Below, in pieces: positions 4,040 to 61,647 of a stretch of 64,000 nucleotides of DNA. The position numbers and the translations under genes were made by a program. The stretch comes from Vicinamibacterales bacterium. GTDB taxonomy: Bacteria; Acidobacteriota; Vicinamibacteria; Vicinamibacterales; UBA2999. Below the pieces are notes generated by a model. That model had not been told where the DNA came from. It saw only the letters and a program-made list of their open reading frames with translations, and did no database searches. Numbering within the stretch: the first letter of the stretch is position 1; each line of letters starts with the position of its first letter. The stretch covers positions 5,618 through 69,617 of the forward strand of contig DASYQV010000311.1 in assembly GCA_036005125.1 (NCBI GenBank). The letters are read 5' to 3'.

Positions 4040-5740
<1,701 letters not shown>

Positions 5741-5805
5741 TTCTTGATTCTTGATTCTCGATTCTTGATTCAAATCAAGAATCATGAATCGCAAATCATG
5801 AATGA
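5741..5805. repeat. Heptamer-armed imperfect hairpin (ATTCTTG/ATTCTCG words vs TCAAGAA/TCATGAA words)
   Basis: Starts 1 nt after the rpoD stop (TAA 5738-5740) and ends just before the tRNA; centre CTTGATT-CA-AATCAAG. Confidence 0.8.
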
Positions 5806-5810
5806 TTGGC

Positions 5811-5883
5811 GGGCCCGTAGCTCAGCGGTTAGAGCGGCCGGCTCATAATCGGTTGGTCCCAGGTTCGAATCCTGGCGGGCCCA
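5811..5883 (+). tRNA. tRNA with CAT anticodon (elongator Met or lysidine-modified Ile2); no encoded CCA
   Basis: Manual cloverleaf: acceptor GGGCCCG/CGGGCCC, D arm GCTC-AGCGGTTA-GAGC, anticodon arm GCCGG-CTCATAA-TCGGT (CAT at 5844-5846), variable TGGTC, T arm CCAGG-TTCGAAT-CCTGG, discriminator A. Confidence 0.88.
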
Positions 5884-6753: not shown

Positions 6754-7199
6754 ATCAACTCTCCCTGTTCGGGTTTTCCAGCGGGCGATCGGCCGTGGCG
6801 AGCATCGACGGCGGGTCGCGCGGCAATCCCGGACCTGCCGGATACGGCGTCCGCATCGAGCAGGACGACGGCACCATCGTCGAGTTGAAGCAGGCGCTGG
6901 GGACCGCTACCAACAACATCGCCGAGTACAACGGATTGCTGGCCGCGCTGACATGGGCCGTCGACCACGGCATCTCGACGCTGCACGTGCGATCCGATTC
7001 CGAGCTCCTCGTCAAGCAGATGCGCGGCGAGTACCGCGTGAAGAATCCGGGACTGCTCCCGCTGCACGAGGAGGCGCGGGCGCTGATGCGACGGCTGGGC
7101 CGCGTGCGGTTCGAGCACGTCCGGCGAGAGCACAACAGGGACGCGGATCGACTGGCCAACGAGGCGATGGACGAAGCCGCGTCCATTCGTGATTCGTGA
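6750..7199 (+). CDS. rnhA: Ribonuclease HI family protein
   Basis: DGGSRGNPGPAGYG, NNIAEYNGLLAAL, SDSELLVKQM, EHNRDADRLAN (DEDD catalytic pattern); GTG 6750 overlaps the upstream stop (GTGA); only the last 150 codons of track ORF 5802..7199 look protein-like. Confidence 0.8.
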   Translation: MNQLSLFGFSSGRSAVASIDGGSRGNPGPAGYGVRIEQDDGTIVELKQALGTATNNIAEYNGLLAALTWAVDHGISTLHVRSDSELLVKQMRGEYRVKNPGLLPLHEEARALMRRLGRVRFEHVRREHNRDADRLANEAMDEAASIRDS

Positions 7200-7277
7200 T
7201 TCGTGATTCTTGATTCCGCTGTGTAGCTCGAATCATGAATCACGAATCATGAATCACGAATCATGAATCATGAATGG
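7185..7277. repeat. Heptamer-armed hairpin (GATTCGT words / ACGAATC-ATGAATC words); 32-bp stem 7185-7216 with 7230-7261
   Basis: Base-by-base pairing gives 32 bp with 1 mismatch and 1 G-U; contains the rnhA stop (7197-7199) and the pgeF stop (complement of 7261-7263). Confidence 0.92.
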
Positions 7278-8086: not shown

Positions 8087-8467
8087 GTGGACATTATAGG
8101 ACTTGGCCTCGATGCGACCGAGATTGACCGGGTCGCGAAGACGATCAGCCGTTACGGCGAGCGCTTCGTCCAGCGGATCTTCACCGAGGGTGAAATCGCC
8201 TATTGCCGCGCCAGGCGTGACTTCGCATCGTCGTTTGCCGCGCGATTCGCGGCCAAGGAGGCGGCGATGAAGGCGCTCGGAACCGGCCGCTCGCGCGGCG
8301 TGTGCTGGCGCGACATCGAGGTCGTCCGCTCCGGAGGCCCGCCGCAACTGCGATTTCATGGCGGCGCGGCTGCGCGCTTCGCGCGGATGGGCGCAACCGG
8401 CTCGCTGTTGACGCTGACACACTCGCAGAACCTCGCCATCGCGCACGTGATGCTCGTTCGCGCCTAG
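8087..8467 (+). CDS. acpS: Holo-[acyl-carrier-protein] synthase
   Basis: IGLGLDATEIDRV, ERFVQRIFTEGE, FAAKEAAMKALG, SLTHS; 126 aa, typical AcpS size; GTG start. Confidence 0.88.
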   Translation: MDIIGLGLDATEIDRVAKTISRYGERFVQRIFTEGEIAYCRARRDFASSFAARFAAKEAAMKALGTGRSRGVCWRDIEVVRSGGPPQLRFHGGAAARFARMGATGSLLTLTHSQNLAIAHVMLVRA

Positions 8468-8528
8468 GAGATAGGAGTCAGGAGTCAGAGCGACCCGCGC
8501 TCTTCCTCCTGACTCCTGACTCCTGTCT
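8467..8528. repeat. GGAG-word heptamer hairpin (GGAGATA GGAGTCA GGAGTCA - apex AGAGCGACCCGCGCTCT - CCTCCTGACTCCTGACTCC)
   Basis: Begins inside the acpS stop codon (TAG 8465-8467); same family as 46364-46500 and 55247-55322. Confidence 0.85.
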
Positions 8529-8696
8529 TCCGGCGACAACCACGGTTAACGAATTGTTCGTGGCCTGCTGGCACCGCGTTCGCGCGCGCAGGATAAACCC
8601 ACCTCTCTCATCGACTTTCGGCGACACGGTCCCACTCCTCCGCCCGGCACCCGCATTGCCTCCGTCTGACTCCGTAACGCCTTGACCGGCAAGGCT

Positions 8697-8765
8697 CATG
8701 ATTCGTGATTCGTGATTTCGGACTCGTGATTCAAATCGTGAATCACGAATCATGAATCATGAATT
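8697..8765. repeat. Heptamer-armed hairpin of the GATTCGT family (core stem CGTGATTC / GAATCACG)
   Basis: TGATTCG TGATTCG TGATTTCGG.. then ..GAATCAC GAATCAT GAATCAT GAAT; outer arms pair imperfectly. Confidence 0.75.
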
Positions 8766-8809
8766 TGGTGACTGGTCAGGCAACCCACGTCTGCGGAGAG
8801 AGGAGCACC

Positions 8810-9127: not shown

Positions 9128-9232
9128 GATTTGCGATGTGTGATTTGCGATGTGTGATTTGTGATTTGTGATTTCGACTCGTCGGCCGTCGGCGTTCGTC
9201 GCCCTGCGCAATCACGAATCGCGAATCACGAG
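9128..9232. repeat. Heptamer array GATTTGC GATGTGT (x2) GATTTGT (x2) GATTTCG, with partner arm CAATCAC GAATCGC GAATCAC
   Basis: Seven consecutive heptamers from 9128; right arm 9209-9232 pairs with the last three left units only if three U-G wobbles are allowed. Confidence 0.85.
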
Positions 9233-9234
9233 TG

Positions 9235-10980
9235 TTATTGCAGGACCGGCAGCAGACGGCTGTTCTCTCTGGCGCGCTTCGGCGGAAGCGTCCACTCCTC
9301 GCGCAACGCTTTGTCGAACTCCGTGCGGAAGAAGCTGCTTTTCATGCCGCCGTCGATGATGTCCCACGGGAGCACCGTATCGCGCGACCGGTCGCGGAAC
9401 ACGTAGAAGTCTGCATCGACGCCGGCTTCGGCGCACGCCGCACGCCAGTTGCCCCCGTTGCGCTCCGCCGCTTCGATGGCCGGTGCGACCCGGCGGTCGC
9501 CAAGCGACAGGAGCGCCTGGTAAAACGAATGCCGCTCGGACTTGATCGTGACGTACACGTTGTCGATGCCGCTCATGAGCGAGCGCATGCGCTTCATCTT
9601 GCGCTCGATGACCGTCGACTCCTCCATCGGCAGCCATTGGTAGGCCGTGCCCGGCTTCGGCACCAGAGGATTCACGCTGCCGACGAGGTTTCCGATGCTG
9701 CCGCGTCCGCGCGCGTGCCGGAGCATGATCTCTTTGAGCTGCAGCGTCAGGTCGCGGATTGCCACGAGATCCTCGTCGGTCTCCGTTGGCAGCCCCATCA
9801 TGAAGTACAGCTTGAGGCTCTGAATGCCGCTCGAAAAGATCATGTCCGCGCTGGACAGGATTTCGTCGTTGGTCACCGTCTTGTTGATGACGCGGCGCAG
9901 GCGATCGGATCCGGTCTCGGGTGCGATGGTAAGGGAGCGCTCGCCGCTCTCTTTCAGCAGACGCACGATGGTAGGCGTCAGATCGTCGAGGCGAAGCGAT
10001 GCCGGACTGATCGCGTACCCCATCGCGTGCAGCCTGGTGAGGATCTCTTCGATCTCCGGGTGATCGCAGAGCGCAATAGACACCAGTCCGGCCCGGCTCG
10101 AGTACGGTTTCGCGCGTTCCGCAAGCGCGAGGATGCGCTCCTTGGGAAACGCGCGCACCGGCAGGTAGTTGTAGCCCGCCCAGCAGAACCGGCACAGGTT
10201 GGCGCACCCGCGCACGACCTCCACCAGGAATCTCGAACCGAACTCGGTGTCGGGCGTGAATATCGTCGTTGCCGGGGGATCCACGGCGTCGGTGGTTTTG
10301 AGCGCGGCTTTCTTCACCACTGCCGGTGCGCCCGTGCCCTCTCGAGGTACGAACGCGCGGATAGTGCCGTCCTCGCGGAATTCGACATCGTAGAAAGACG
10401 GGACATAGAAGCCGCGTTCGGCGGCGAGCCGACGCAGGAGGTCGCCTCGATCCGACGCCGTCTGGAAGGCCTTGAGGAGCGCGGGGATGAGCACCTCCCC
10501 TTCTCCGGCGGCAATGACGTCGGCAAACAGCGCGAGCGGTTCGGGATTGACGAAGGTGACCGCGCCCCCAATCAGCACGAGCGGATGTGCCGCAGTACGT
10601 GCCTCGGCTCGCACGGGCAAACCCGCCAGCCGCAGCATGGTGAGCACGTTCGTGTAGTCCCACTCGAACGATACCGAAAACGCGAAGATGTCGAACTCGG
10701 CCACGGGCGTCTGGGACTCGATCGTGACCAGGCGCACGCCCGACGCGATTTGCGCGGCGAGCTCCTGCTTGGGAGGCAGGAACACGCGCTCGCACACGAT
10801 GTCCGGTTCCTCGTTGAACAGCTTGTAGACGGTCTGCAGCCCCAGGTTCGACATCCCGACGAAATAGGTGTTCGGGAACGCCAGCGCGACGCGCAGCCGT
10901 CCGCCGTGCGGTTTGCGGACGTAGCCCACCTCTTTCGAAAGGATCTCGCGGGCGTGCTCACGCTGCTGCCAATGCTTCAT
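9235..10980 (-). CDS. Radical SAM protein with N-terminal B12-binding-like domain (uncharacterised TIGR03960-like type)
   Basis: VRGCANLCRFCWAGY (CxxxCxxC), N-terminal ALAFPNTYFVGMSNLGLQ; ATG 10980 (track start 11013 is a TTG). Confidence 0.8.
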   Translation of the reverse strand: MKHWQQREHAREILSKEVGYVRKPHGGRLRVALAFPNTYFVGMSNLGLQTVYKLFNEEPDIVCERVFLPPKQELAAQIASGVRLVTIESQTPVAEFDIFAFSVSFEWDYTNVLTMLRLAGLPVRAEARTAAHPLVLIGGAVTFVNPEPLALFADVIAAGEGEVLIPALLKAFQTASDRGDLLRRLAAERGFYVPSFYDVEFREDGTIRAFVPREGTGAPAVVKKAALKTTDAVDPPATTIFTPDTEFGSRFLVEVVRGCANLCRFCWAGYNYLPVRAFPKERILALAERAKPYSSRAGLVSIALCDHPEIEEILTRLHAMGYAISPASLRLDDLTPTIVRLLKESGERSLTIAPETGSDRLRRVINKTVTNDEILSSADMIFSSGIQSLKLYFMMGLPTETDEDLVAIRDLTLQLKEIMLRHARGRGSIGNLVGSVNPLVPKPGTAYQWLPMEESTVIERKMKRMRSLMSGIDNVYVTIKSERHSFYQALLSLGDRRVAPAIEAAERNGGNWRAACAEAGVDADFYVFRDRSRDTVLPWDIIDGGMKSSFFRTEFDKALREEWTLPPKRARENSRLLPVLQ

Positions 10981-11039: not shown

Positions 11040-11258
11040 GAAAATCGTGGGTCGAGCGCCGGATGTAGCCAGATCACCTTCTGTCGAGACGGTCCAGTAG
11101 ATGCGCGCTGAACGACGAAACGAGACGCCGGGGCACGGTCGGGAGCTGATCCGCGAGCTGCAGCTGAAGCGACGCCGCTCGCGGGTGCCGTGGATATTCG
11201 TAGTCTATCAGGTCCGTCCGTGGCGACAGGCACGTGAAGCGCACCAAAAAGATGCTGC

Positions 11259-11317
11259 GATGACCAGTCGAGGGACTTTGCGAGGATATCAACGGCAGAG
11301 TCCCTCGACTGGTCATC
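11259..11317. repeat. Module-C-like hairpin (GATGACCAGTCGAGGGACT ..GATATCAA.. AGTCCCTCGACTGGTCATC) overlapping the ftsZ stop codon
   Basis: 19-bp perfect inverted repeat 11259-11277 / 11299-11317; loop carries the GATATCAA motif seen in module C of the A-B-C mosaics; ftsZ stop is at 11316-11318. Confidence 0.85.
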
Positions 11318-12647
11318 AGCTCTGGCGGCGAAGGAACGCTGGCACGTCGAACGGCGAGGAATGATCGACCGTCCCCTCGTCTCCCTCTGCCGGGTTCGAG
11401 ACGGCGCCCGAAACCGCGCCAATGCCCGCGCCGGTCCGGCTCGCGCCGGAGGGGGGCGGGGGGAGCGTCACGTCGAGCGCTGCCCGCCGCGTGACGGTCA
11501 GCTGCGGAGCCGCGGTTGGCGGCGTGCCTGCCTGTCCCGTCGGCTGCTCGACCCTCGCCTCCGCCGTGCGGCCGAGGTGTGCGTTGTAGGTATTCAGGTC
11601 GATCGGCGTCTGGAGCGCCGCCGCCGGCACTCCGCGACCTGTGCCTTTGCGGTCGAAGCCGGTCGCAATCACGGTGATCTTCACCCTGCCCGTGACGTGC
11701 GGATCCACCACGGCACCGAAGATGATGTTGGCGTCCTCGTGCGCCGCCTCCTGGATGATGCATGACGCCTCGCTGACCTCGGTCAGTGACAGATCGGGGC
11801 CGCCGGTGACGTTGATGATCACGCCGCGCGCGCCCGTGACGGAACTGTCCTCGAGGAGCGGGCTCGAAATCGCCTTCTGCGCGGCGGCCATCGCGCGCCC
11901 GTCGCCCTCGGCCACGCCCGTCCCCATCATCGCGACGCCCATGCCGGACATGATTGTCTTCACATCGGCGAAATCGAGGTTGATCAGTCCAGGAACGAGG
12001 ATGAGATCCGAGATCCCCTGAATCGCCTGACGCAACACATCGTCGGCGGTCATGAACGCATCGGTCATCGGCGTGCGGCGTTCGATGATCGAGAGCAGCC
12101 GCTCGTTGGGAATCGTGATCACCGTATCGACGCACTCCCGCAGCGCCTCGAGGCCGGCCTCGGCTTGAAGCGCGCGCTGCCGGCCCTCGAACTTGAACGG
12201 CTTGGTGACGACCGCAATCGTCAGCGCGCCGAGCTCCGTTGCGAGGCTCGCGATGACGGGGGCAGCGCCGGTCCCGGTGCCGCCGCCCAGACCCGCGGTC
12301 ACGAAGATCATGTCCGCGCCGGACAACGTCTGGAGGATCGTGTCGGTGTCCTCGAGCGCAGCCTGGCGGCCGACGTTCGGATCCGCGCCCGCGCCGAGCC
12401 CCTTGGTGAGCCTCGATCCGATCTGGATCTTGACGGCGGCCTTGTTGTAGTCGAGCGCCTGCAGGTCGGTGTTGGCGACGATGAATTCCACGCCGCCCAG
12501 ACCGGCATCGACCATGCGGTTGACCGCGTTGCAGCCGCCGCCGCCGACGCCGATCACTTTGATCCGCGCGCCGTTGCGTATGTCGCGGTCGAGCATCAGC
12601 CGCAGCCGCTCGTCAGCGCGTCCGTTCTGGCCGTCGAAGTCGCTCAT
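11316..12647 (-). CDS. ftsZ: Cell division protein FtsZ
   Basis: [17 protein letters not shown], tubulin signature [14 protein letters not shown]-terminal DVPAFLRRQ peptide; ATG 12647 preceded by GGAGGG; the track ORF start at 12983 adds 112 Arg/Gly-rich residues that overlap ftsA. Confidence 0.97.
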
Positions 12648-13915: not shown

Positions 13916-13941
13916 CCCTCGCGAACACCCGCACATGCATA

Positions 13942-14034
13942 CGTAGGCCGGGTCCTCAGACCCGGCACACAGTGACCGTGCGTAGGCCGGGTCTTTAGAC
14001 CCGGCGGGTGCCGCATCTGAAGATGCGGCCTACG
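13942..14034. repeat. REP-like hairpin cluster: two GCCGGGTC-loop-GACCCGGC hairpins plus GCCGCATCT-GA-AGATGCGGC, flanked by CGTAGGC/GCCTACG
   Basis: 13942-13966 and 13981-14005 (CGTAGGCCGGGTC(CTCA/TTTA)GACCCGGC), 14010-14034; same unit at 39244-39297 (inverted) and 43670-43731. Confidence 0.9.
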
Positions 14035-14046
14035 ACCGAAGAATCC

Positions 14047-14877
14047 TCAGCGATCCTTCCCTGCCGATCTCCCGGGCCTGACGTAGACCCGCTCGTCGAA
14101 TCGCATGTCGACGTAGTCGATGTTCGGCACTCGCTTCCGCACGGCCGGCAGCAGATCGAGGTAGGTCTGCAGGCGTTCAGCGAACTGATCGTCGCCGAGA
14201 CGAAGGAGCGCCGTGTCGTCCTTCAGCAGCACCACCGCGTCATGCGGGTCGGTCACGTCGATCTGCGAGACCCGCGCGGCGAGATCGGACCGTCCCTGGA
14301 GCGCCGCAAGGAGTCGGACCGCCAGCGCCGCACGGGTTCCATCGATCAGCGGTCCGCCATCCCGTGGCGCGGTTCCGAGGCCGTCGATGACCGGCAGGTC
14401 GAATTCCGCATAGTTCGGCCCGAACTCGTCGATGATCAATCCACGGTCGTCAATCAGGTACAGGTGGCTCCCGATCCGTCCCACGCCCAGCGGCCGGCGC
14501 TCGGCGATCGCAACGGCCACCGTGCCGGGCAGCACACGCCGCATCGCCGCATCGGCGACCCACGGCGACGTGAGCAGCTTCCGTCGCCACGCCTCGAGGT
14601 CGACCGTCAGCATGTGCTCGCCTCGAAGACCGTCCAGCAGCGTCACCACCTCTCCGCGCGCGAGCCGGTCGTTGCCGCTCACGGTGATGCGCCTCACCCG
14701 AAGCGCCTCCGCAAACAGCACCAGCGAGGCGGCGCGGTAGGCGACGTACAGACCGACGGCCAGTATCACGGCCGCACGTCCGATTACCCGCCAGTTCACC
14801 ATCCACGGGCGGCGCCTGTGCGACGGGCTCACGCGCGCGCGGCGGAAGCGCTTGTCCGCTGGCGCGGCGACCGGCAT
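14047..14877 (-). CDS. ftsQ: Cell division protein FtsQ (POTRA domain)
   Basis: Single TM (AAVILAVGLYVAY), then POTRA-like ITVSGNDRLARGEV; position between murC and ftsA; start ambiguous (14877 or 14910), and both lie next to or inside mosaic module A. Confidence 0.8.
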   Translation of the reverse strand: MPVAAPADKRFRRARVSPSHRRRPWMVNWRVIGRAAVILAVGLYVAYRAASLVLFAEALRVRRITVSGNDRLARGEVVTLLDGLRGEHMLTVDLEAWRRKLLTSPWVADAAMRRVLPGTVAVAIAERRPLGVGRIGSHLYLIDDRGLIIDEFGPNYAEFDLPVIDGLGTAPRDGGPLIDGTRAALAVRLLAALQGRSDLAARVSQIDVTDPHDAVVLLKDDTALLRLGDDQFAERLQTYLDLLPAVRKRVPNIDYVDMRFDERVYVRPGRSAGKDR

Positions 14878-14881
14878 CGGA

Positions 14882-15026
14882 CCGTTATGCGGGTTCAAAC
14901 GGAGTCTCATGCTCGTTGTGGGACCGCATAACGGTCCAGGCGCGCGGAGCGCGCCAGAAGATACCGGGCGAACCAGCCGAGGAGCTCTGCCGCCGATATC
15001 AAGGGGCAGAGTTCCTCGGCTGGTTC
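14882..15026 (+). repeat. A-B-C mosaic element, copy 1 (plus orientation)
   Basis: A 14882-14934 (CCGTTATGCGG..CCGCATAACGG), B 14939-14955 (GGCGCGC-GGA-GCGCGCC), C 14970-15026 (GAACCAGCCGAGG..GATATCAAGG..CCTCGGCTGGTTC); followed by 2 x GAGCTCCTTTCGGCC. Confidence 0.9.
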
Positions 15027-16456
15027 TGCAGCTCCTTTCGGCCCTGGAGCTCCTTTCGGCCGAGCGCCTCGACGAGCCGGGCCGGGACTGTCCCGATCGA
15101 GCCAGCTCCCAGAGTGATTACCGCGTCGCCAGGCTTAGCGATCTCGATCACCGTCGTCACCACCTCATCGAGCGTCCGGGCGAGCCGGACGCGCTTCCCG
15201 CTACCGCGGCTGATCGCGTCGGCGAGCGCGTCGACCGTCACACCCGGAATCGGTTCCTCATTCGCGGCATAAATATCGGTGAGGACGATCTCGTCGGCGT
15301 TCTTCAGCGCCGGTCCGAAGGCGTCCAGCAGGTCGCGGGTGCGCGTATACCGATGCGGCTGAAACGCGACGACCAGCCGCCGGTCGAGCGCGGCGCGCGC
15401 AGCCGCCAGGACCGCGGCGATTTCCGTCGGATGATGGCCGTAGTCGTCAATCACGAGCACGCCGCCGACCTCGCCGTACCGCTCGAACCGCCGCTCGGCG
15501 CCCTCGAAGCCTTCGAGCGCGCGCACCACCTGAGCGAAATCGACGCCCACCTGCTCGGCCACGGCGAGGGCGGCGAGCGCGTTCTGCAGGTTATGACGAC
15601 CCGGCATGAGGAGCCGCAGCTCGCCCAGTCTGTCCGTGGCCGTCGCGTGGCGGCGGTGGACGATACAGCGACCGCCGAAGCTGCCCACGTCGATGTCGGT
15701 CCCGATGATGTCGGCCTCGGCATTGTCGAGCCCGTAGGTGACGAGCCGCCGCTTCACGTTCGGCAGCACCGCCGCGAGCGGTTCATCATCGGCACACGCG
15801 ATCACGCTGCCGTAGAACGGCACTCTGTTCGCGAACTCGAGAAACGCACCCTGCAGCTCGGCAAAGCTCCCGTAGTTCTCCATGTGCTCCCGGTCGATGT
15901 TCGTAATCACCGCGATCGCGGGCCAGAGCATCAGGAACGATCGGTCGCTTTCGTCCGCCTCGGCCACCAGATACTCGCCGCCGCCGAGCCGTGCGTTGCT
16001 GCCGAACGCGCTCAGCCGGCCGCCGATCACCGCGGTCGGGTCGAGACCGGCGCCCTCCAGCACGAGCGCGATCATCGAGGTCGTCGTCGTCTTGCCGTGC
16101 GCCCCGGCCACCGCAATCGAGAACCGGAGCCGCATCAACTCGGCCAGCATTTCGGCCCGCGCGACGACCGGGATTCGGCGCCGCTGGGCTTCGGCGATCT
16201 CGGGGTTGGTCGGCTTCACCGCGGAGGACACGACCACGACGTCGGCGTCGCCCACGTACGACCCTGCATGTCCTTCCAGAACAACGACACCGAATTTCGA
16301 GGCGAGACGATCGGTCACCTTCGATCGCTTCTCATCGGATCCGGTGACGACGTACCCGAGATTTGCCAGCAGTTCGGCGATACCGCTCATGCCGATGCCG
16401 CCGATGCCGACGAAGTGGACCCGCCGGGTCTTCCCCAGCAAACCGTGTTGCAGCAC
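14999..16456 (-). CDS. murC: UDP-N-acetylmuramate--L-alanine ligase
   Basis: VHFVGIGGIGMSGIAELL, GAHGKTTTTSM, DESDRSF; the last ~20 codons (GRKELQGRKELQNQPRNSAP) and the stop lie inside repeat sequence. Confidence 0.95.
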   Translation of the reverse strand: MLQHGLLGKTRRVHFVGIGGIGMSGIAELLANLGYVVTGSDEKRSKVTDRLASKFGVVVLEGHAGSYVGDADVVVVSSAVKPTNPEIAEAQRRRIPVVARAEMLAELMRLRFSIAVAGAHGKTTTTSMIALVLEGAGLDPTAVIGGRLSAFGSNARLGGGEYLVAEADESDRSFLMLWPAIAVITNIDREHMENYGSFAELQGAFLEFANRVPFYGSVIACADDEPLAAVLPNVKRRLVTYGLDNAEADIIGTDIDVGSFGGRCIVHRRHATATDRLGELRLLMPGRHNLQNALAALAVAEQVGVDFAQVVRALEGFEGAERRFERYGEVGGVLVIDDYGHHPTEIAAVLAAARAALDRRLVVAFQPHRYTRTRDLLDAFGPALKNADEIVLTDIYAANEEPIPGVTVDALADAISRGSGKRVRLARTLDEVVTTVIEIAKPGDAVITLGAGSIGTVPARLVEALGRKELQGRKELQNQPRNSAP

Positions 16457-16496
16457 TCGTCACCTTTACGCGTGTGTCCCGACCGCGCGGCTCAGC

Positions 16497-16632
16497 CCGT
16501 TATGCGGCCGCAAACGCGAATTTTGTACGCGTTGTCGCACCGCATAACGGGCCTAGGCGCGCGGAGCGCGCCAAGAAGATACTGGGTCTGACCAGTCAAG
16601 GGCAGAGCCCGGCAGAGCCCCTGACTGGTCAG
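16497..16632 (+). repeat. A-B-C mosaic element, copy 2 (plus orientation)
   Basis: A 16497-16550, B 16556-16572, C 16588-16632 (CTGACCAGTCAAGGGCAGAGCCCGGCAGAGCCCCTGACTGGTCAG); the murG stop (16629-16631) is in the right arm of C. Confidence 0.9.
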
Positions 16633-19028: not shown

Positions 19029-19159
19029 GCGAGAGCGGTCAGCAGTCATCAGTCGGCCCGTGGGACGGGACACCATCCTCGCAGACCGGGGTAGTCTGCG
19101 TTCCCAGCGGAGGGCTCCCAACCGCGCCATGCCGACTGACGACTGCTGACCGCTCTCGC
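19029..19159. repeat. 131-nt element: 29-bp near-perfect stem enclosing a 73-nt multi-hairpin core
   Basis: GCGAGAGCGGTCAGCAGTCATCAGTCGGC (19029-19057) vs GCCGACTGACGACTGCTGACCGCTCTCGC (19131-19159), one non-Watson-Crick position; inner hairpins CCCGT-GGG-ACGGG and GCAGAC-CGGGGTA-GTCTGC (19081-19099). Confidence 0.85.
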
Positions 19160-19208
19160 CATTTGCGACTTGTGATTCGTGATTTGTGATGGCGCTCCAC
19201 CAGGATCG

Positions 19209-32811: not shown

Positions 32812-33600
32812 ATGGCAGACAAGCCCCTCGGTCTGTCGTTTTTCTTTCCCGCATTCAACGACGGCGGAACCATTGCCAGCCTGGTCATCAGAGCCGTGCA
32901 GGTCGCGAGCCGCCTCACGCCCGACTATGAGGTCATCGTCGTGAACGACGGCAGCTCCGACGCGACCGCCGAGATCGCCGAGGAGCTGGTGCGCACATAT
33001 CCGTGCGTGCGCGTCATCCACCACGCGGAGAACCGCGGTTACGGCGGCGCGCTGCGCACCGGCTTTGCGGCAGCTACCAAAGATCTCATCGCCTACACGG
33101 ACGGCGACGCGCAGTACGATCCCGCCGAGCTCGAAATGTTGTGGAACCGGTTGACCCCGGACGCCGACATGGTGAACGGCTTCAAGATCAGCCGGGCGGA
33201 TCCGCTGCACCGCATCATCATCGGGCGGATTTATCACCACACCGTGAAGATCCTCTTCCGCCTCCGCGTGAGAGACGTCGACTGCGATTTCCGTCTGATG
33301 CGCCGTGAAATCTTCGATCGCGTGAAGCTCGAACGCGATACCGGTGTCATCTGCCTCGAGATGATGCGCAAGATCCAGGAAGCAGGATTCCGCATCGTCG
33401 AGGTGCCGGTGAGCCACTACCACCGCGCCTACGGCACGTCACAGTTCTTCAACTTCCGGCGGGTCTTCTGGACGGGCGTCGACGTGATGAAGCTCTGGAT
33501 TCAGCTCGTCGTGCTCGGACAGCACAGCTCGCCGGTCCTGTTCCGCAACCCCACCATCGCCGGCACCGTGCCGAAGGAACCCAGGCAGGGCGCGCAGTGA
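32812..33600 (+). CDS. GT2 family glycosyltransferase
   Basis: FFFPAFNDG, VVNDGSSDAT, YTDGDAQYDP. Confidence 0.8.
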   Translation: MADKPLGLSFFFPAFNDGGTIASLVIRAVQVASRLTPDYEVIVVNDGSSDATAEIAEELVRTYPCVRVIHHAENRGYGGALRTGFAAATKDLIAYTDGDAQYDPAELEMLWNRLTPDADMVNGFKISRADPLHRIIIGRIYHHTVKILFRLRVRDVDCDFRLMRREIFDRVKLERDTGVICLEMMRKIQEAGFRIVEVPVSHYHRAYGTSQFFNFRRVFWTGVDVMKLWIQLVVLGQHSSPVLFRNPTIAGTVPKEPRQGAQ

Positions 33601-33690
33601 AGCTCCGCTTCAAATCGCCTGGACCCGTGCGGCGAACAGGCTGCGCGTCACCGCGCCCCAGTAGCTCTTGGCCCCGCTTCGCGGGGCCTC

Positions 33691-33755
33691 GACATCTCCT
33701 AAGGCCAAGCGGAAAACTTGCTTCATTCGTGACGATCTCGGCCTTAGGAGATGTC
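33691..33755 (+). promoter_or_regulatory. Perfect 16-bp inverted repeat that would sequester the AGGAG ribosome-binding site of the downstream SDR gene
   Basis: GACATCTCCTAAGGCC (33691-33706) and GGCCTTAGGAGATGTC (33740-33755), 33-nt loop; AGGAG 33746-33750 is 7 nt upstream of GTG 33758; preceded by hairpin GGCCCCGC-TTC-GCGGGGCC (33670-33688). Confidence 0.5.
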
Positions 33756-33757
33756 TA

Positions 33758-35889: not shown

Positions 35890-36848
35890 GGGCGCTGATC
35901 ACTGGCGGCGCCGGCTTCATAGGCTCGCACCTCGCCGAGCATCTGCTCGAGACAGGACACGAGGTGCTGATCCTCGACAACCTCTCGACCGGTTCGATCG
36001 ACAACATCACGCATCTGAAAGGAACGCCGCGGTTTTCCTACACGATTGATTCGGTGACCAATGAGCCGCTGCTTGCCGAGCTCATCGATCAGAGCGACGT
36101 CGTCTTTCATCTGGCCGCTGCGGTTGGCGTCAAGCTGATCGTCGAGCAGCCCGTCCACACGATTGAGACCAACGTGCACGGAACCGAAGTCGTCCTCAAG
36201 CACGCGAACAAGAAGAAGAAGCTTGTCTTCATTGCTTCCACCTCCGAGGTCTATGGCAAGAGCGCGGACGTCCCCTTCCGGGAGGATGCCGACCTGGTGC
36301 TCGGGGCTACCGTCAGGCACCGGTGGGCCTACGCGTGCAGCAAGCTCATTGACGAGTTCCTCGCGCTGGCCTATTGGAAAGAACGCCGGCTGCCGATTGT
36401 GATCGTGCGTCTATTCAACACAGTAGGGCCTCGGCAGACGGGTCGGTACGGGATGGTCCTGCCAACTTTTGTCAGACAGGCGCTGGCGGGCAAGCCGATT
36501 ACAGTATTCGGCGACGGAACCCAGTCGCGGAGCTTCACCTACGTCCGGGACGTGGTGGCCGCCCTCGCCGCACTCGCTGGCGAGCCCCGCGCCGTCGGCC
36601 AGGTGTTCAATATTGGGAATACCGAAGAGGTGACGATTCGGGCGCTGGCGGAACGGGTGCGCGTTCTGGCGGGCAGCCGCTCGCCCGTTCAACTGGTTCC
36701 CTACGACCAGGCCTACGAAAAAGGATTCGAGGACATGCCGCGCCGGGTGCCCGATATCTCGCGAATCCGGGATCTTATTGGTTTTGCGCCGCAAATGTCG
36801 CTCGACGACATCATTTGCCGGGTGATCGAACACATTCGCCAGCATTAG
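35886..36848 (+). CDS. Extended-SDR, ArnA C-terminal-domain-like (candidate UDP-glucuronate decarboxylase)
   Basis: ITGGAGFIGSHL, STSEVYG, RWAYACSK (YxxxK), FNTVGPR, FGDGTQSRSFTYVRD; by-eye similarity to the ArnA decarboxylase domain; GTG 35886 overlaps the upstream stop. Confidence 0.85.
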   Translation: MRALITGGAGFIGSHLAEHLLETGHEVLILDNLSTGSIDNITHLKGTPRFSYTIDSVTNEPLLAELIDQSDVVFHLAAAVGVKLIVEQPVHTIETNVHGTEVVLKHANKKKKLVFIASTSEVYGKSADVPFREDADLVLGATVRHRWAYACSKLIDEFLALAYWKERRLPIVIVRLFNTVGPRQTGRYGMVLPTFVRQALAGKPITVFGDGTQSRSFTYVRDVVAALAALAGEPRAVGQVFNIGNTEEVTIRALAERVRVLAGSRSPVQLVPYDQAYEKGFEDMPRRVPDISRIRDLIGFAPQMSLDDIICRVIEHIRQH

Positions 36849-36852
36849 TACC

Positions 36853-36999
36853 CCGTTATGCGGCCCGAAACGCGAATTTTGTACTCGTTGTGGGACCGCA
36901 TAACGGGCTAGGCGCGCGAAACGCGCCAAAAGATCCTGGTCTAACCAGCCGAGGGGCTCTGCCCGGGATATCAAGGGGGCGGAGCCCCTTGGCTGGTTC
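36853..36999 (+). repeat. A-B-C mosaic element, copy 3 (plus orientation)
   Basis: A 36853-36906, B 36911-36927 (GGCGCG-CGAAA-CGCGCC), C 36941-36999 (CTAACCAGCCGAGGGGCTCTGCCCGGGATATCAAGGGGGCGGAGCCCCTTGGCTGGTT); starts 5 nt after the SDR stop. Confidence 0.9.
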
Positions 37000-39243: not shown

Positions 39244-39297
39244 GCAGGCCGCATCTTCAGATGCGGCCCATGCCGGGTCTAAAAGACCCGGCCTACG
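39244..39297. repeat. REP-like two-hairpin unit (inverted orientation relative to 43670-43731)
   Basis: GCAGGCCGCATCTTCAGATGCGGCCCATGCCGGGTCTAAAAGACCCGGCCTACG. Confidence 0.9.
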
Positions 39298-39785: not shown

Positions 39786-39882
39786 TCCAACAGGGCGGCT
39801 GAAGGCCCCGCTACCCCAACCTTTCGAGCTCTCGCCGTGCGAGGGCCCCTTTTTTGGGTACGCTAAAGGGTGTCGACCTTGG

Positions 39883-39973
39883 TCTACCGGAACGGCTTAA
39901 CGCCGTTCCTTCGTCTACCGGAACGGCTTAACGCCGTTCCTTGGTCTACCGGAACGGCTTAACGCCGTTCCTT
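39883..39973 (+). repeat. Three tandem 31-nt units, each a hairpin (D unit: TCTACCGGAACGGC-TTAAC-GCCGTTCCTT)
   Basis: 29-nt cores identical at 39883-39911, 39914-39942, 39945-39973; a fourth copy with a loop substitution is at 52518-52548. Confidence 0.93.
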
Positions 39974-41625
39974 TGGGACACGGTCGCCTCTACAGCTTGG
40001 CCGAAACTTCCGCCGAAACGTTCGCACCCCCCGCAGCACGCGTCGCCCCTGCTTCCGGGCTCGCGCGGTCCGCCGGCGTGACCGGCGTGGCCACGATGAC
40101 GAGCCGCGTCCTCGGCCTGGTCCGCGATCAGGTCCTGGCCTCGATGTTCGGAGCGGGCAACGCCATGGACGCCTTCAACGTGGCGTTCCGCATTCCCAAC
40201 CTCGTTCGCGACCTCTTTGCCGAAGGAGCCATGAGCGCGGCATTCGTGCCGACCTTCACGCGTGAGCTCACGACCGGCGGCAAGGAACGCGCGTGGAGGC
40301 TCGGTAATAACGTTCTGACCGCGCTCGTTGTCATCACCGGTGTGCTGGTCGTCCTCGGAATGATCTTCGCCGAGCCGCTGGTGACAGCCTTTGCCGGTGA
40401 CTACTCGCAGGTCGAGGGCAAGCTCGAACTGACGGTGCTGCTCACGCGGATCATGCTGCCGTTCCTGACGTTCGTCGCGCTCGCGGCGGCGTTCATGGGC
40501 ATGCTGAACTCGCTGCATCAGTTCTTTGTTCCGGCGCTCTCGCCGGCGATGTTCAACATCGGCACGATCGTGTGCGCGTTTGCGCTCGTGCCGGTGATGC
40601 CACGCTTCGGGCTGCCGCCGATCACCGCGATCGCGATCGGGACGCTCGTCGGCGGTCTCGCGCAGCTGGCTATCCAGTGGCCCGCGCTCACGCGCGGGGG
40701 CTTCCAGTACCATCCGGTGCTCGACTTCCGCGATCCGGGCCTGCGGCGCGTGCTCGTCCTGATGGGGCCCGGCACGGTGGGCCTGGCTGCTACGCAGGTC
40801 AACGTGTTTGTGAACACGGTGCTTGCGACGGCACAGGGCACCGGCGCGGTGTCGTGGCTCAACTACGCATTCCGTCTGATGTACCTGCCGATCGGGCTCT
40901 TCGGCGTATCAATCGCGACGGCGGCGATTCCCGCCGTGTCCCGCCATGCAGCACAGGACGATCGGGCCGGAATCCGTCGCACGATTGCCGACGGCATGAC
41001 GCTGATGATGATGCTGAACGTCCCCGCAACGGTGGGTCTGATCGTGCTGGCGTCGCCAATCGTGCGTGTCATCTTCGAGCGGCGGGCGTTCACGCCGCTC
41101 GACACGGCCGCCACCGCGGCCGCGCTGCAGTTCTACGCCATCGGGTTGATCGGATATTCGGTGGTGCGGATTGCCTCTCCAACCTTCTACGCGCTCAACG
41201 AAAGCCGGACGCCGGTGAAGGTCAGCATGGCGAGCGTCCTCGTCAACGCGGGTTTGAACATCCTCCTTGCTCAGTTCATGGGCTACCGTGGTCTGGCGCT
41301 CGGGACCTCGATCGCGGCAATCGTCAACGCCGGTCTGCTCCTGTTCCTGCTCCGGCGACGCCTCCACGGGCTCGAGGGCCGGCGCGTGACGATCGCGCTT
41401 TTCAAGATCACCGCCGCTTCGTTGGCGATGGGCGCGGCGGCGCTCGTTGTCGACACGCTGATGCAGGGCTGGGTGCCCGGCGCCGGGTTCACCGCACAGC
41501 TCATTCGGCTGGCCGCAGACATCGGTGCCGCAGTGGTCGTGCTTGGGGCTACTGCACACCTCCTGCACATCAACGAGTTCCGTCGGGGCATGATGCTCGT
41601 GACGTCGCGGGTTCGGCGGCGTTAG
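39973..41625 (+). CDS. murJ: Lipid II flippase MurJ (MviN/MOP family)
   Basis: RVLGLVRDQVLASMFGAG.AMDAFNVAFRIPNLVRDLFAEGAMSAAFVP; 14-TM-like profile; start uncertain (TTG 39973 touches the last D unit; other in-frame TTG/GTG lie downstream). Confidence 0.9.
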   Translation: MGHGRLYSLAETSAETFAPPAARVAPASGLARSAGVTGVATMTSRVLGLVRDQVLASMFGAGNAMDAFNVAFRIPNLVRDLFAEGAMSAAFVPTFTRELTTGGKERAWRLGNNVLTALVVITGVLVVLGMIFAEPLVTAFAGDYSQVEGKLELTVLLTRIMLPFLTFVALAAAFMGMLNSLHQFFVPALSPAMFNIGTIVCAFALVPVMPRFGLPPITAIAIGTLVGGLAQLAIQWPALTRGGFQYHPVLDFRDPGLRRVLVLMGPGTVGLAATQVNVFVNTVLATAQGTGAVSWLNYAFRLMYLPIGLFGVSIATAAIPAVSRHAAQDDRAGIRRTIADGMTLMMMLNVPATVGLIVLASPIVRVIFERRAFTPLDTAATAAALQFYAIGLIGYSVVRIASPTFYALNESRTPVKVSMASVLVNAGLNILLAQFMGYRGLALGTSIAAIVNAGLLLFLLRRRLHGLEGRRVTIALFKITAASLAMGAAALVVDTLMQGWVPGAGFTAQLIRLAADIGAAVVVLGATAHLLHINEFRRGMMLVTSRVRRR

Positions 41626-43669: not shown

Positions 43670-43731
43670 CGTAGGCCGGGTCTTTAGACCCGGCGCCGCT
43701 TGCTGCGCCGCATCTAAAGATGCGGCCTACG
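43670..43731. repeat. REP-like two-hairpin unit
   Basis: CGTAGGCCGGGTCTTTAGACCCGGC-GCCGCTTGCTGC-GCCGCATCTAAAGATGCGGCCTACG between the convergent rhomboid and cupin genes. Confidence 0.9.
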
Positions 43732-43739
43732 TCCTATCC

Positions 43740-46363: not shown

Positions 46364-46500
46364 GAGTTAGGAGTTAGGAGTCAGGAGATAGAGCGACACG
46401 TGCACTCTAACTCCTATCTCCTGACGCTGCGTATTAGAAGGAGTCGGGAGATAGAGCGGCACGGTGCACCCTGACTCCTATCTCCTGTCTCCTGACTCCT
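46351..46500. repeat. Tandem duplication (74 + 76 nt) of a GGAG-word heptamer hairpin together with the last codons of the E1 gene
   Basis: Unit 1 46351-46424 and unit 2 46425-46500 both begin CGCTGCGTATTA, then GAGTTAG/GAGTCAG words, apex AGAGCG(A/G)CACG(G)TGCAC, then CTCCTATCTCCTG. Confidence 0.88.
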
Positions 46501-50145: not shown

Positions 50146-52445
50146 CCGCAATTCGATCTGTGGCCGTGCTTGGCGCGGGGACGATGGGTGCGCAGATTGC
50201 CGCGCACTTCGCCAATGCCGGCGTCCCCTCGTTGCTCCTGGACGTGAGCGCCGACGTGGCGAAGCAGGGGCTCGATCGCGCCCGCAAGCTCAAACCCGAT
50301 CCGTTCTTCACGCCCGATGCGTGGAAGCTCATCACGACCGGCAGCTTCGACGAGCTGCCGCGCATCAAGGACGTCGACTGGATAACAGAGGCCGTCGTCG
50401 AGCAGCTCGAGATCAAGCGCGCGCTACTCGAGAAAGTCGACCAGCACCGCCGTCCCGGTTCGATTGTCAGCTCGAACACATCCGGCATTTCGATCGCCGC
50501 GCTTGCCGAGGGTCGCTCCGACGATTTCAGGACGCACTGGCTGGGGACGCACTTCTTCAACCCGCCGCGGTACCTGCGCCTCCTTGAGGTCATCCCGACC
50601 GCCGAGACCGCTCAGGACGTGCTGGATCGGGTCGTGCAGTTTGCCGATCACCATCTGGGCAAAGGGGTCGTGATCGCGAAGGACTCGCCAAACTTCATCG
50701 GCAACCACGTCGCACTGTACGGGCTCATGCGCGTGCTGGCCACGGTCGCCTCCGGCGAATACACGATCGAGGAAGTGGATGCCATCACCGGCCCGGCCCT
50801 CGGCAGGCCGAACAGCGCGACGTTCAGGACGATGGACCTCGCCGGTATCGACGTCCTCGCTCAGGTCGTCAACAACCTCCACGAAAGGCTGCCTGACGCG
50901 CGCGACCGAGAGATGTTCGTGCTCCCCGAGTTCGTGCGGAAGATGATCGAACGCGGCATGGTTGGCGAAAAGGCCGGCAAGGGCTTCTACAAGCGCGTGA
51001 AGCAGCCGAGCGGCGAGTCGGAGATCCTGACGCTGGATCCGGCGACGCTCGAGTACCGGCCGAGGCAGTCCGCGCGCCTCGGGTCGCTCGAGGCAGCACG
51101 ATCGATCGAGGATGGTGGGGAACGGGTAAAAGCGTTGTTTCATGGCAAGGATCGCGTAGGGGCGTTCCTCCGCCGGACGCTCGCGCCAACGCTCGTCTAC
51201 ACCGCGCGCGTCACGCCGTGCATAGCAGACTCGCCCGACGACGTGGACCGCGTCATGCGATGGGGGTTCGGCTGGGATCTGGGGCCTTTCGAGCTCGCCG
51301 ACGCCATCGGCATACGCGAAGTGCTCGATGCTGCGCGGGAAGCAGATCCTGCAGTGCTCCGCGACGGCGTGCCGCCGCTCTTCGAATCCGCTTTGAGCCG
51401 CAACCGGCTTCGAGAGGGCGAGGTGCCGCCTGCCGCGCCCGATCTGCAGATCCTCCGCTCGGCGAAGGAACGACGCCGCGTGGTGAAGAAGAATGCCGGG
51501 GCAAGCCTCGTCGATCTCGGTGACGGCGTGCTCTGTGTCGAGTTCCACTCGAAGATGAACGCCATCGGCGGCGACACGGTGCAGATGCTCCAGATGGGCG
51601 TGCGCGAGGCGTCACAGCATTTCGCCGCGCTCGTCGTCGGCAACGATGCGACAAATTTCTCTGCCGGCGCGAACCTGATGCTGGTGCTGCTCGAGGCGCA
51701 GGAGGAGAACTGGGACGAGATCGACGTCATGGTACGCGCGTTCCAGCAATCGACAATGGCGCTTCGTTACTCTGACGTGCCGGTCGTGGTGGCGCCCGGG
51801 GGCCTGACGCTCGGGGGCGGATGCGAGATTGCGATGCACGGCGATCGTGTGCAGGCGGCTGCCGAAACCTACATGGGCCTGGTCGAGGTCGGCGTCGGAT
51901 TGATTCCGGCTGGCGGCGGAACCAAGGAGATGACTGCGCGCGCCGCCGAGCAGATGCCGCCGGGCACGACCGATTATCTGCCGCCCATCCAACGGGCGTT
52001 CGAAACGATTGCGTTTGCCAAAGTCTCGGCGAGCGGCCCGGACGCGGAGCGCATCGGCTATCTCTCGCCGACAGACGCGTTCACGATGACCCGGGAACGG
52101 CTGATCGCCGACGCGAAGCGCCACGCACTCGAGCGCGTCCGCGACGGGTATCAGCGGCCGGTGCCGCGGACGGCGATTCCTGTTGGCGGCGACGCGGTCC
52201 TCGCACCGCTCAAGCTGGGAGTCCATCTTGCCTGGAGGGCCGGGCGCATCAGCGACCATGACGCGTTGATCGGACGGAAACTGGCCACGATTATGGCTGG
52301 CGGCAATCTGCCGCATCCGACGACGGTGTCGGAGCAGGCGCTGCTGGATCTGGAGCGGGAAGCCTTCCTCAGTCTGCTCGGCGAGCGGAAGACGCAGGAA
52401 CGGATTCAGCACACGTTGAAGACGGGCAAGCCGTTGCGGAACTAA
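50142..52445 (+). CDS. fadN: Bifunctional 3-hydroxyacyl-CoA dehydrogenase / enoyl-CoA hydratase (FadN-type domain order)
   Basis: N-terminal Rossmann VAVLGAGTMGAQIA, C-terminal crotonase fold with GGGCEIAMH. Confidence 0.9.
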   Translation: MTAIRSVAVLGAGTMGAQIAAHFANAGVPSLLLDVSADVAKQGLDRARKLKPDPFFTPDAWKLITTGSFDELPRIKDVDWITEAVVEQLEIKRALLEKVDQHRRPGSIVSSNTSGISIAALAEGRSDDFRTHWLGTHFFNPPRYLRLLEVIPTAETAQDVLDRVVQFADHHLGKGVVIAKDSPNFIGNHVALYGLMRVLATVASGEYTIEEVDAITGPALGRPNSATFRTMDLAGIDVLAQVVNNLHERLPDARDREMFVLPEFVRKMIERGMVGEKAGKGFYKRVKQPSGESEILTLDPATLEYRPRQSARLGSLEAARSIEDGGERVKALFHGKDRVGAFLRRTLAPTLVYTARVTPCIADSPDDVDRVMRWGFGWDLGPFELADAIGIREVLDAAREADPAVLRDGVPPLFESALSRNRLREGEVPPAAPDLQILRSAKERRRVVKKNAGASLVDLGDGVLCVEFHSKMNAIGGDTVQMLQMGVREASQHFAALVVGNDATNFSAGANLMLVLLEAQEENWDEIDVMVRAFQQSTMALRYSDVPVVVAPGGLTLGGGCEIAMHGDRVQAAAETYMGLVEVGVGLIPAGGGTKEMTARAAEQMPPGTTDYLPPIQRAFETIAFAKVSASGPDAERIGYLSPTDAFTMTRERLIADAKRHALERVRDGYQRPVPRTAIPVGGDAVLAPLKLGVHLAWRAGRISDHDALIGRKLATIMAGGNLPHPTTVSEQALLDLEREAFLSLLGERKTQERIQHTLKTGKPLRN

Positions 52446-52613
52446 TCAAGGACTCTGCCCTTGATACCCGGCAGAGCCCTTGATTAGTTCGCGCAGTATC
52501 TTTTTTGGCGCGCTTTATCTACCGGAACGGCTTAAGGCCGTTCCTTCGAGCGCGCCGAGCCCGTTATGCGGTCGCACAACGGGTACAAGATTCACGTTGG
52601 GGCCGCATAACGG
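52442..52613 (-). repeat. A-B-C mosaic element, copy 4 (inverted), with a D unit inserted into the loop of module B
   Basis: C' 52442-52487, B' GGCGCGC[..TCTACCGGAACGGCTTAAGGCCGTTCCTT..]GCGCGCC about 52507-52556, A' 52561-52613; A' matches the reverse complement of the other A modules. Confidence 0.88.
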
Positions 52614-52625
52614 GCTAAATGCGAT

Positions 52626-55246: not shown

Positions 55247-55322
55247 GGAGGAAGGAGTTAGGAGATAGGAGTCAGAGTGACACGTGACACTCTAACTCCT
55301 GCCTCCTAACTCCTAACTCCTG
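55247..55322. repeat. GGAG-word heptamer hairpin (GGAGGAA GGAGTTA GGAGATA GGAGTCA - apex GAGTGACACGTGACACTC - TAACTCC TGCCTCC TAACTCC TAACTCC)
   Basis: Between fadA and fadE; the apex contains CACGTG, as in the 46364-46500 copies. Confidence 0.88.
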
Positions 55323-61596: not shown

Positions 61597-61647
61597 CGGC
61601 TGACGATTGAAATCCGCGGGACCTCACAGGGCAGAGTCCTTGACTCG

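Follow-up and report, generated by a model that had tools for sequence, protein, structure and literature searches.

The 64,000-nucleotide stretch of DNA analyzed here (hereafter the window), from contig DASYQV010000311.1 of a Vicinamibacterales bacterium, contains four full copies of a unit of about 150 nt that consists of three hairpins in fixed order, modules A, B and C, as well as one B–C fragment at the ftsZ stop codon and one relic half of module C. This A–B–C unit is probably a palindromic DNA element without genes of its own, non-autonomous and present in many copies, which proliferates in the chromosomes of Vicinamibacterales. It is best read as a new element of the kind represented by repetitive extragenic palindromes (REPs) and bacterial interspersed mosaic elements (BIMEs), or by the non-autonomous relatives of the IS200/IS605 insertion sequences.

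The original prediction, made from the letters of the window, had placed four A–B–C copies in it, and alignment, an nhmmer profile and a covariance model all recover them. With the profile and the covariance model, which were built mostly from copies of other genomes, the four units reach E = 1e-28 to 1e-41. They align end to end with mutual identities of 62–79%, and the 11-nt arms of module A (CCGTTATGCGG/CCGCATAACGG) occur eight times in the window against 1.3 expected, a number reached in none of 100 shuffles. Copy 1 (14877–15026, plus strand; covariance model 127 bits, E = 2e-37) lies between the ftsQ start and the murC end and comprises the tag TCGG-A (14877–14881), module A (14882–14934), module B (14939–14955), a linker (14956–14969) and module C (14970–15026). 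Copy 2 (16492–16632, plus strand; 122 bits) lies between the murC start and the murG end, with the tag TCAG-C at 16492–16496, A at 16497–16550, B at 16556–16572 and C at 16588–16632. Copy 3 (36848–36999, plus strand; 138 bits) follows a gene for an NAD-dependent epimerase (stop TAG at 36846–36848), has A at 36853–36906, B at 36911–36927 and C at 36941–36999, and is the sole window copy in sense orientation to its flanking genes.

Copy 4 is inverted (52439–52618, minus strand; 121 bits) and separates a fadB-like gene from an alpha/beta-hydrolase gene, with its TTAG tag at 52618–52615, A at 52613–52561, the B arms at 52556–52550 and 52513–52507, and C at 52490–52439. Its longer B loop results from a nested 36-nt GTAG-tagged hairpin repeat of another family (52514–52549, minus strand). 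The same repeat, as the 31-nt hairpin unit TCTACCGGAACGGCTTAACGCCGTTCCTTCG, stands three times in tandem at 39871–39975, just upstream of murJ. A further covariance model match at 33591–33757 (minus strand, 28 bits) looks like unrelated hairpins and was not retained as a unit; this spacer between two plus-strand genes holds the hairpins CTCCTAAGGCC..GGCCTTAGGAG and GGCCCCGCGAAGCGGGGCC, probably of another repeat family.

An alignment of 35 non-redundant copies defines the conserved block, and similarity ends abruptly on both sides of it. The 5′ part reads (c)TTAG-N-CCGTTATGCGG, an inner hairpin whose loop is GAATTTTGTAC, and then CCGCATAACGG-N'-CTA(g); the middle is GGCGCGC-GNA-GCGCGCC followed by an A-rich linker; and the 3′ part is the long C hairpin, (CTA|G)AAC(C/T)AGCC(G/A)AGGGGC...GGATATCAAGG...GCCCCTTGGCT(G/A)GTT(AG|C). 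Conservation begins 5 nt ahead of arm A, with (T)TAG-N pairing with N'-CTA behind the right arm. Module A alone measures about 64 nt, and its halves are not palindromic by themselves. TAG occupies positions -4 to -2 in 66 of 101 A modules, the base before it being mostly T and sometimes G or C, and the opposite strand of A carries GTAG or CTAG (GTAG-A-CCGTTATGCGG in one metagenome-assembled genome, MAG). A candidate small open reading frame (ORF) within A (ATG...TAG, 17 codons in copy 3) was discarded, its frame being broken in other subfamilies.

When folded as DNA, the window units each give three hairpins, the energies being -54 to -59 kcal/mol and z = -9 to -11 on either strand. Modules A, B, linker and C are as predicted from the window, each module being its own hairpin and the whole being copied as a unit. 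Across 24 diverse copies the three helices have 96.7% of their cells paired, versus 31–42% with slid partners; changes on both sides occur at eight stem pairs (2 of 500 shuffles reach eight), and the covariation score is 0.147 against 0.073 in shuffles (none of 500 reaches it). Compensatory changes were found in the stems of all three modules. Because module A copies were ascertained by a search pattern with exact arms, the A arms are fixed in that set; copies recovered by the model only carry the compensated A arms CCGCTATGCGG/CCGCATAGCGG, CCGTTGTGCGG/CCGCACAACGG and CCGCTATACGG/CCGTATAGCGG, all with an unchanged GAATTTTGTAC loop. These arm variants around a constant loop indicate that pairing is what is preserved in the stems and sequence what is preserved in the two loops, and both loops, GAATTTTGTAC in A and GGATATCAAGG in C, are conserved across the order.

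Such a very stable, covarying three-hairpin fold would also suit a unit acting at the RNA level, as a cis-acting structured RNA (mRNA stabilizer, RNase processing site or translation decoupler) or as a small or guide-like RNA, with the loops serving as RNA contacts. The order-wide conservation of the loops even where arms change, the location of units inside operons directly behind stop codons and a mild antisense excess all fit this explanation. Relative to co-directional flanking genes, called in the fetched loci with our own simple caller from GC at codon positions, 22 units run antisense and 12 run sense, while 8 contexts are convergent and 10 divergent; both orientations are common, which speaks against an RNA. 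The A–B–C strand folds slightly better as RNA in 43 of 62 copies (mean -2.6 kcal/mol), but this advantage stems from one fixed G·T pair in module C. That pair contributes 11 of the 19 G·T mismatches counted against 8 A·C mismatches, the remainder being 8 versus 8, and we therefore rejected the excess as a strand-specific RNA signature.

No promoter-like site was found within or beside the units and no convincing terminator, a single weak 5-pair match in the C region of copy 2 occurring at the shuffle rate. In Rfam, the sole window match at the gathering threshold is a tRNA, and no family matches the units even at E ≤ 10, where they draw only spurious microRNA-type hairpin hits far below threshold. 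The equal folding of both strands, the use of both orientations and the symmetric mismatches point to a DNA-level hairpin element, not an RNA gene, and any RNA effects would be consequences. An action at the RNA level is accordingly an unlikely account of the unit, and the discrete structured RNA of about 150 nt that had been offered as one possibility is not supported.

The element extends well beyond the window. When the module A pattern was scanned against a single genome from each species, at least 94 loci matched; 80 of these, listed with titles, correspond to about 38 assemblies. Almost all carriers among the matches listed bear the label Vicinamibacterales or unclassified Acidobacteriota; a few matches fall on short contigs assigned to other bins, probably in error. 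In the fetched loci (8 kb each, 0.73 Mb in total), the profile identified 64 A–B–C units, 38 A-only hits, 9 A–B forms and a few C or B–C pieces. About 26 of 101 module A pattern matches, included in the 38 A-only hits, represent a form that we call A–B–C2, in which A and B are joined to a different, G+C-rich 3′ part (..CGCGAGGGAGCGGCGCGGGGC..GAGCCGGGGTCCGGGGCGGAGCCCCGGTCTAGTT); it occurs at L004–L007, L012, L019, L020, L023, L028, L029, L034, L039, L060 and other loci. The joining of A and B to alternative 3′ parts indicates that the modules recombine into alternative mosaics, and solo A and A–B forms occur as well. At several loci, other small hairpin repeats are nested in the B or C loops. 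A gene enclosed by two A modules at locus L027 was considered as a candidate transposase and proved to be a FAD oxidoreductase-like ORF.

MAG JBKPDL01 holds at least 20 copies with a median identity of 91% and a maximum of 98.7% (copies inside one MAG are not independent of each other), whereas copies from different genomes are about 70% identical. This likeness within a genome, combined with divergence between genomes, indicates proliferation within genomes, and the unit is copied as a whole, since linker and subfamily-specific substitutions travel together. Viral contigs scanned with the module A pattern gave no match.

Close relatives lack the unit at identical gene junctions. At the murC/ftsQ junction, MurC relatives at 90–93% identity measure 472–473 aa, end in ..EALARKESQKE* and lack the element there. 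In L096 (MurC 93% identical), the murG–murC spacer is 34 nt and murC and ftsQ overlap in ATGA, and neither junction has the unit; in L095 (90%), murC/ftsQ is empty and the murG–murC spacer holds an independent unit in the same orientation at another position. The murC/ftsQ junction of L098 is likewise without the unit, and murG and murC abut in L097 with no unit there. L097 (MurC 91% identical) carries instead an unrelated, repeat-rich insert of 163 nt at murC/ftsQ (1566–1728 of that locus), and its murC ends AAC TAG; this insert indicates that different small repeats have colonized the murC/ftsQ junction repeatedly. L099, L101 and L103 have no unit between the fadB-like and hydrolase genes; these three relatives, whose protein identities are 94, 95 and 98%, all read CGG AAT TGA TCCGGT ATG where the window has 171–177 extra bases. 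These copies are thus present or absent between relatives at 90–98% identity and would most simply be recent insertions. We infer the single-base boundaries and the ancestral tag sequences from these empty sites.

The presence and absence of units at junctions of an essential operon, between relatives at 95–98% identity, argue against a required regulatory role. They also bear on the idea that the unit is a DNA site used by the host (for a nucleoid protein, gyrase or an IHF-like protein), maintained by selection, with recombination or gene conversion and not a dedicated transposase as its main means of spread. E. coli BIMEs have been proposed as binding sites for host proteins, and the C loop TATCAAGGGG shares WATCAA with the consensus of integration host factor (IHF). 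Conserved loop motifs, long-term persistence across the order and modular recombinants (A–B–C1, A–B–C2, A alone, A–B) would be expected of such a site. Near-identical bursts in one genome and insertions at new junctions among close relatives would not, no binding protein is known, and the placement next to a tag and superimposed on stop codons requires an insertion mechanism. We regard a host-used site as improbable, on a par with an action at the RNA level.

A gene on the same strand lies no more than 400 nt upstream of module A in 33 units; ten of these genes stop exactly at the position of the element's TAG (two of them with TAA), another three end no further than 4 nt away, and not one continues into A. 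Of the 26 genes that approach the element from the C side, 19 have their stop within it or at its end: eight as AAC-TAG/TAA, four as tAA/tGA on the final bases, four in the C loop like murC, and three within one base of the element end. For MutS2, the NHL-repeat protein, murG and the fadB-like gene, the stop falls at the codon where element-free orthologs have theirs. The MutS2 ortholog in L028 ends ..VVELKE* on the tag, at a length equal to that of the element-free MutS2 of the window (..VVELKD*), and the NHL-repeat protein of L022 belongs to a family in which most homologs end ..TN*, the element-free L102 ending ..TTH* at equal length. The polyprenyl synthase in L071 is a further case, its end ..RDR* being probably the native C-terminus.

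In the window, the murG stop codon (TGA, 16629–16631) lies in the right arm of C of copy 2, as predicted, and the fadB-like stop codon (TAA, 52443–52445) lies in an arm of C of copy 4. The claim that the element remodels gene ends holds for murC only; murG and the fadB-like gene keep the position of their stop codons because the element's own end supplies the stop. The murG stop codon has the same position with and without the element (GTC TGA in the window, GTC TAG in L096), and all homologs of the fadB-like protein end ..KPLRN*, copy 4 leaving the position of the stop codon unchanged.

The window MurC measures 485 aa, 13 residues more than its relatives, and ends ..EALGRKELQGRKELQNQPRNSAP*; no recorded protein has exactly this sequence. 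Its 3′ end (14999–15061, minus strand) comprises an 18-nt tandem duplication beside copy 1, with one mismatch between 15026–15043 (CTGCAGCTCCTTTCGGCC) and 15044–15061 (CTGGAGCTCCTTTCGGCC). The duplication encodes GRKELQ twice, adding six residues, and module C then encodes NQPRNSAP and the stop, eight codons deriving from the C right arm and the TGA (14999–15001) from the C loop. That this tail was formed by a duplication plus module C is borne out by the element-free orthologs, which lack it, the length of the duplication being 18 nt and not the 15 nt first given. Both halves of the duplication lie on the same side of copy 1, and it is therefore not a target duplication. A similar tail, QAQPGSPAP, is present in P0005. 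On the other side of copy 1, module A does adjoin the ftsQ start, which by homology is the ATG at 14877–14875, 4 nt from arm A rather than 5.

Comparison of filled and empty sites places the unit directly 3′ of a T-Y-A-G tetranucleotide, its own 3′ end being again Y-T-R-G. In element orientation, the copy 4 junction reads ..GCAT-TTAG-[C CCGTT...CCTTGA-TTAG]-TTCCGC against ..GGA-TCAA-TTCCGC when empty, and the copy 2 junction ..GGC-TCAG-[C CCGTT...GACTGG-TCAG]-ACCCGCC against ..GGC-CTAG-ACCTGCC; the end of copy 1 reads ..GGCTGG-TTCTGCAGC against ..TTCTGCGAC. TYAG^ agrees with the resolved junctions in copies 2 and 4 and in L022, and native flank supplies the TT(C/G) completing the C stem for copies 1 and 4 and for L022. 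TTAG is rare, with 39 occurrences on both strands of the 64-kb window. On the simplest description that these sequences allow, the TYAG before the unit would be the stop codon of the neighboring gene wherever such a gene ends at the unit. The YTRG at the element's 3′ end implies that an opposite-strand gene cut from its old stop regains a stop at the same codon; the end of copy 1 is CTGG, and murC consequently runs on for nine codons until it meets the TGA of the C loop.

Terminal inverted repeats are absent from the unit, and no target duplication recurs consistently across copies, as the original prediction had noted. A 4-nt target duplication was considered and rejected, since the 3′ bases covary with the C left arm and differ from the 5′ tag in most copies. 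These properties make it very improbable that the unit is a classical MITE (a transposable element of miniature size with inverted repeats) derived from a DDE-transposase insertion sequence, bearing terminal inverted repeats and moving by cut and paste with a target duplication of fixed form, such as TA. In its size, its copy number, its intergenic location and the TAG/CTAG motifs of its ends the unit would fit a MITE, and IS630-type elements use CTAG/TA. However, the 5′ end TTAGNCCGTTATG does not form an inverted repeat with the 3′ end (reverse complement CTAACCAGCC or GAACTAGCC), the covariation of the 3′ bases with the C left arm marks them as stem and not as duplication, and the end tetranucleotides differ in most copies.

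Some C stem bases (GTCTAAC...GTTAGAC) fit the RYYYAAC/GTTRRRY pattern of integron attC-like recombination sites, which are also folded hairpins found beside stop codons. Most copies (GAAC...GTTC) do not fit this core pattern, the insert at the fadB-like junction measures only 171–177 nt and has no cassette gene, copies sit inside the essential division and cell wall (dcw) operon, and the window contains neither an integrase nor a cassette array. An attC-like site is contradicted by the empty-site comparisons and was rejected; we give it even less credence than a MITE.

The lack of inverted repeats and duplications, the tetranucleotide at the hairpin foot and the insertion next to a tetranucleotide lead us to propose that the unit may be moved in trans, as folded single-stranded DNA, by a hairpin-recognizing HUH/Y1 enzyme of the TnpA or RAYT (REP-associated tyrosine transposase) type. 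REPs and their composite REPINs (through RAYTs) and IS200/IS605 derivatives (through TnpA) are moved in this way. The target would be a 5′ tetranucleotide that is often a native stop codon, either T plus TAG on the same strand or the reverse complement of C plus TAA/TGA on the opposite strand. In the latter case the gene would lose its old stop and the element's 3′ end would supply a new one at the same codon, a rebuilding predicted to fail where the element ends in CTGG, as at murC. The flanks (TAG-N and the 3′ TT(C)) pair with internal N'CTA and GAA, which suggests that the target may be read by base pairing. Stable hairpins in operon mRNAs, lost stop/start overlaps and occasional C-terminal tails would likely be side effects and not the purpose of the unit.

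Among the closest known systems are REPs and REPINs, found in E. coli and Pseudomonas. Like the unit, they are high-copy extragenic palindromes with an xTAG at the hairpin foot, without inverted terminal repeats or target duplications, and they form composites with fixed linkers; their termini also give TAG stops to flanking genes, and canonical GTAG REPs share the window, one being nested in copy 4. In the GTAG-tagged REP superfamily, REP termini often supply TAG stops (Di Nocera et al. 2013; PMC3733652). The unit differs from these in being 150 nt long, with three unlike hairpins in fixed order, whereas a REP is 20–40 nt or an inverted pair; in a tag that is mostly TTAG and paired into the stem; in loops that are conserved besides the stems; and in the lack of a linked RAYT in the window and in the 0.73 Mb of loci. 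A BIME-like mosaic had been proposed: the unit is indeed a dispersed mosaic, but BIMEs serve as an analogy only, since they alternate one REP family and the unit joins three unrelated hairpins in one order and orientation.

Gene-less IS200/IS605 derivatives (PATEs) share with the unit the absence of inverted terminal repeats and of target duplications, hairpins at both ends, insertion directly 3′ of a specific tetranucleotide and a similar tetranucleotide at the element 3′ end. The complementarity between flanks and internal bases also recalls the guide pairing of IS608. The end hairpins of the unit are however unrelated, the A arms CCGTTATGCGG and the C arms AACCAGCCGAGGGGC sharing no similarity, the putative guide lies 3′ of hairpin A and not 5′, and no TnpA or TnpB gene was found near the copies. 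Pneumococcal BOX (boxA–boxB–boxC) resembles the unit by architecture only, as a three-part, structured intergenic element of about 150 nt with no coding capacity and about a hundred copies per genome, but belongs to an unrelated taxon and has a variably repeated boxB; we know of no stop-codon tags or target rule for BOX. Mycobacterial MIRU, Rickettsia RPE, Neisseria Correia and enterobacterial ERIC/RU elements also occupy operon spacers and gene ends and can supply stops, starts or residues, yet Correia elements have inverted terminal repeats and a TA duplication, RPEs are intragenic and in frame, and MIRUs contain small coupling ORFs. A literature search for the unit motifs and for repeats in Vicinamibacteria found no relevant paper. 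As the unit fails the defining features of each known class and its motifs were not met in the literature searched, it is a new family among the small structured non-autonomous bacterial repeats and not a new kind of system.

Several observations weigh against the unit being a mobile element of this type. No transposase of any kind is encoded in the window, and no gene recurs beside the units in 94 loci, whose 494 neighbor proteins, clustered all-against-all, fall into ordinary large families only. Phmmer searches of six-frame ORFs of the 0.73 Mb with E. coli RAYT and IS200 TnpA queries gave no match to a RAYT/IS200-type protein, a weak test since such genes are usually single-copy. The A and C end hairpins differ from one another, whereas the two ends of IS200/IS605 elements are similar. 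Copy 2 allows a reading in which TCAG is a 4-nt target duplication, every junction leaves 3–4 nt of ambiguity in the element boundary, the nearest empty sites come from relatives at 90–98% identity and not from identical strains, and gene positions in the fetched loci rest on a crude caller. Finally, loop conservation across an order exceeds the needs of simple parasitism and could reflect a host factor or an RNA role.

A more specific version of the proposed mechanism, to which we attach a low probability, is that the unit homes to stop codons. The internal N'CTA (after A) and GAA (before C) would pair with a TTAG^TT(C) target, which encodes Asn-stop on the other strand, and the 3′ YTAG would rebuild the displaced stop. 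The unit would then be the remnant of a guide-directed, HUH-type single-strand transposon that is nearly harmless in compact operons, and the conserved loops would be docking sites for the enzyme, or the transcript a guide-like RNA.

Two degraded pieces complete the inventory of the family in the window. The partial unit without A at 11228–11316 (plus strand; profile E = 4e-12, model positions 63–145) consists of a degenerate B, the linker and C, and its last base is the first base of the ftsZ stop codon (11316–11318). The module C noted there earlier is thus present, although it is not solo. The half-site predicted near 61621–61640 is also real, with an extent corrected to a relic of the C loop and right arm at about 61612–61648 (plus strand), whose AGGGCAGAGTCCTTGA is identical to copy 4 (16/16 core match); the covariance model did not recover it at E ≤ 1.

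The window also holds other small repeats. Two families of canonical REP-like hairpins with a GTAG tag (CGTAGGCCGGGTCTTTAGACCCGGCG and GCCGCATCTGAAGATGCGGCCTACG) lie at 13937–14046, 39248–39275 and 43670–43734, those at 13937–14046 forming a BIME-like cluster that fills the ftsA–ftsQ spacer. These hairpins suggest that the host genome has a RAYT-type system. The adjoining part of the dcw cluster (14047–16456) has the order murG–murC–ftsQ with no murB or ddl between murC and ftsQ, as does the P0008 contig. Intergenic heptamer arrays occur at 5738–5803, 7182–7275, 8685–8778, 9141–9247, 19159–19196 and 63753–63805, at 1961–2264, and at 8465–8503, 46368–46406 and 55252–55290. The heptamers are GATTCGT/TGAATCA (one array directly 5′ of the tRNA at 5811–5883), TTTGACC/AGGTCAA between mutS2 and dnaG, and (T)AGGAGT; relatives carry other heptamers at equivalent spacers, such as TTGGGAT in L100 at the copy 4 site.

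The most notable features of the unit are its loop sequences, conserved across an order, and the way it fits seamlessly onto stop codons and regenerates the stop. The Vicinamibacterales rank with the most abundant bacteria of soil, and to our knowledge almost nothing is known about the dynamics of their genomes. The unit family, being present or absent between relatives at 95–98% identity, offers a ready marker of recent genome change. It is also a source of mis-annotated gene ends, as illustrated by the murC tail, the ftsQ start and stops borrowed from the repeat, and probably causes assembly breaks in metagenomes. A tag on the native stop combined with a regenerated stop would constitute a sequence rule by which a hairpin element can colonize essential operons, dcw among them, and leave the host alive. 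An HUH enzyme that reads this stop-codon rule, if one were found, would provide a new natural example of sequence-directed insertion of single-stranded DNA.

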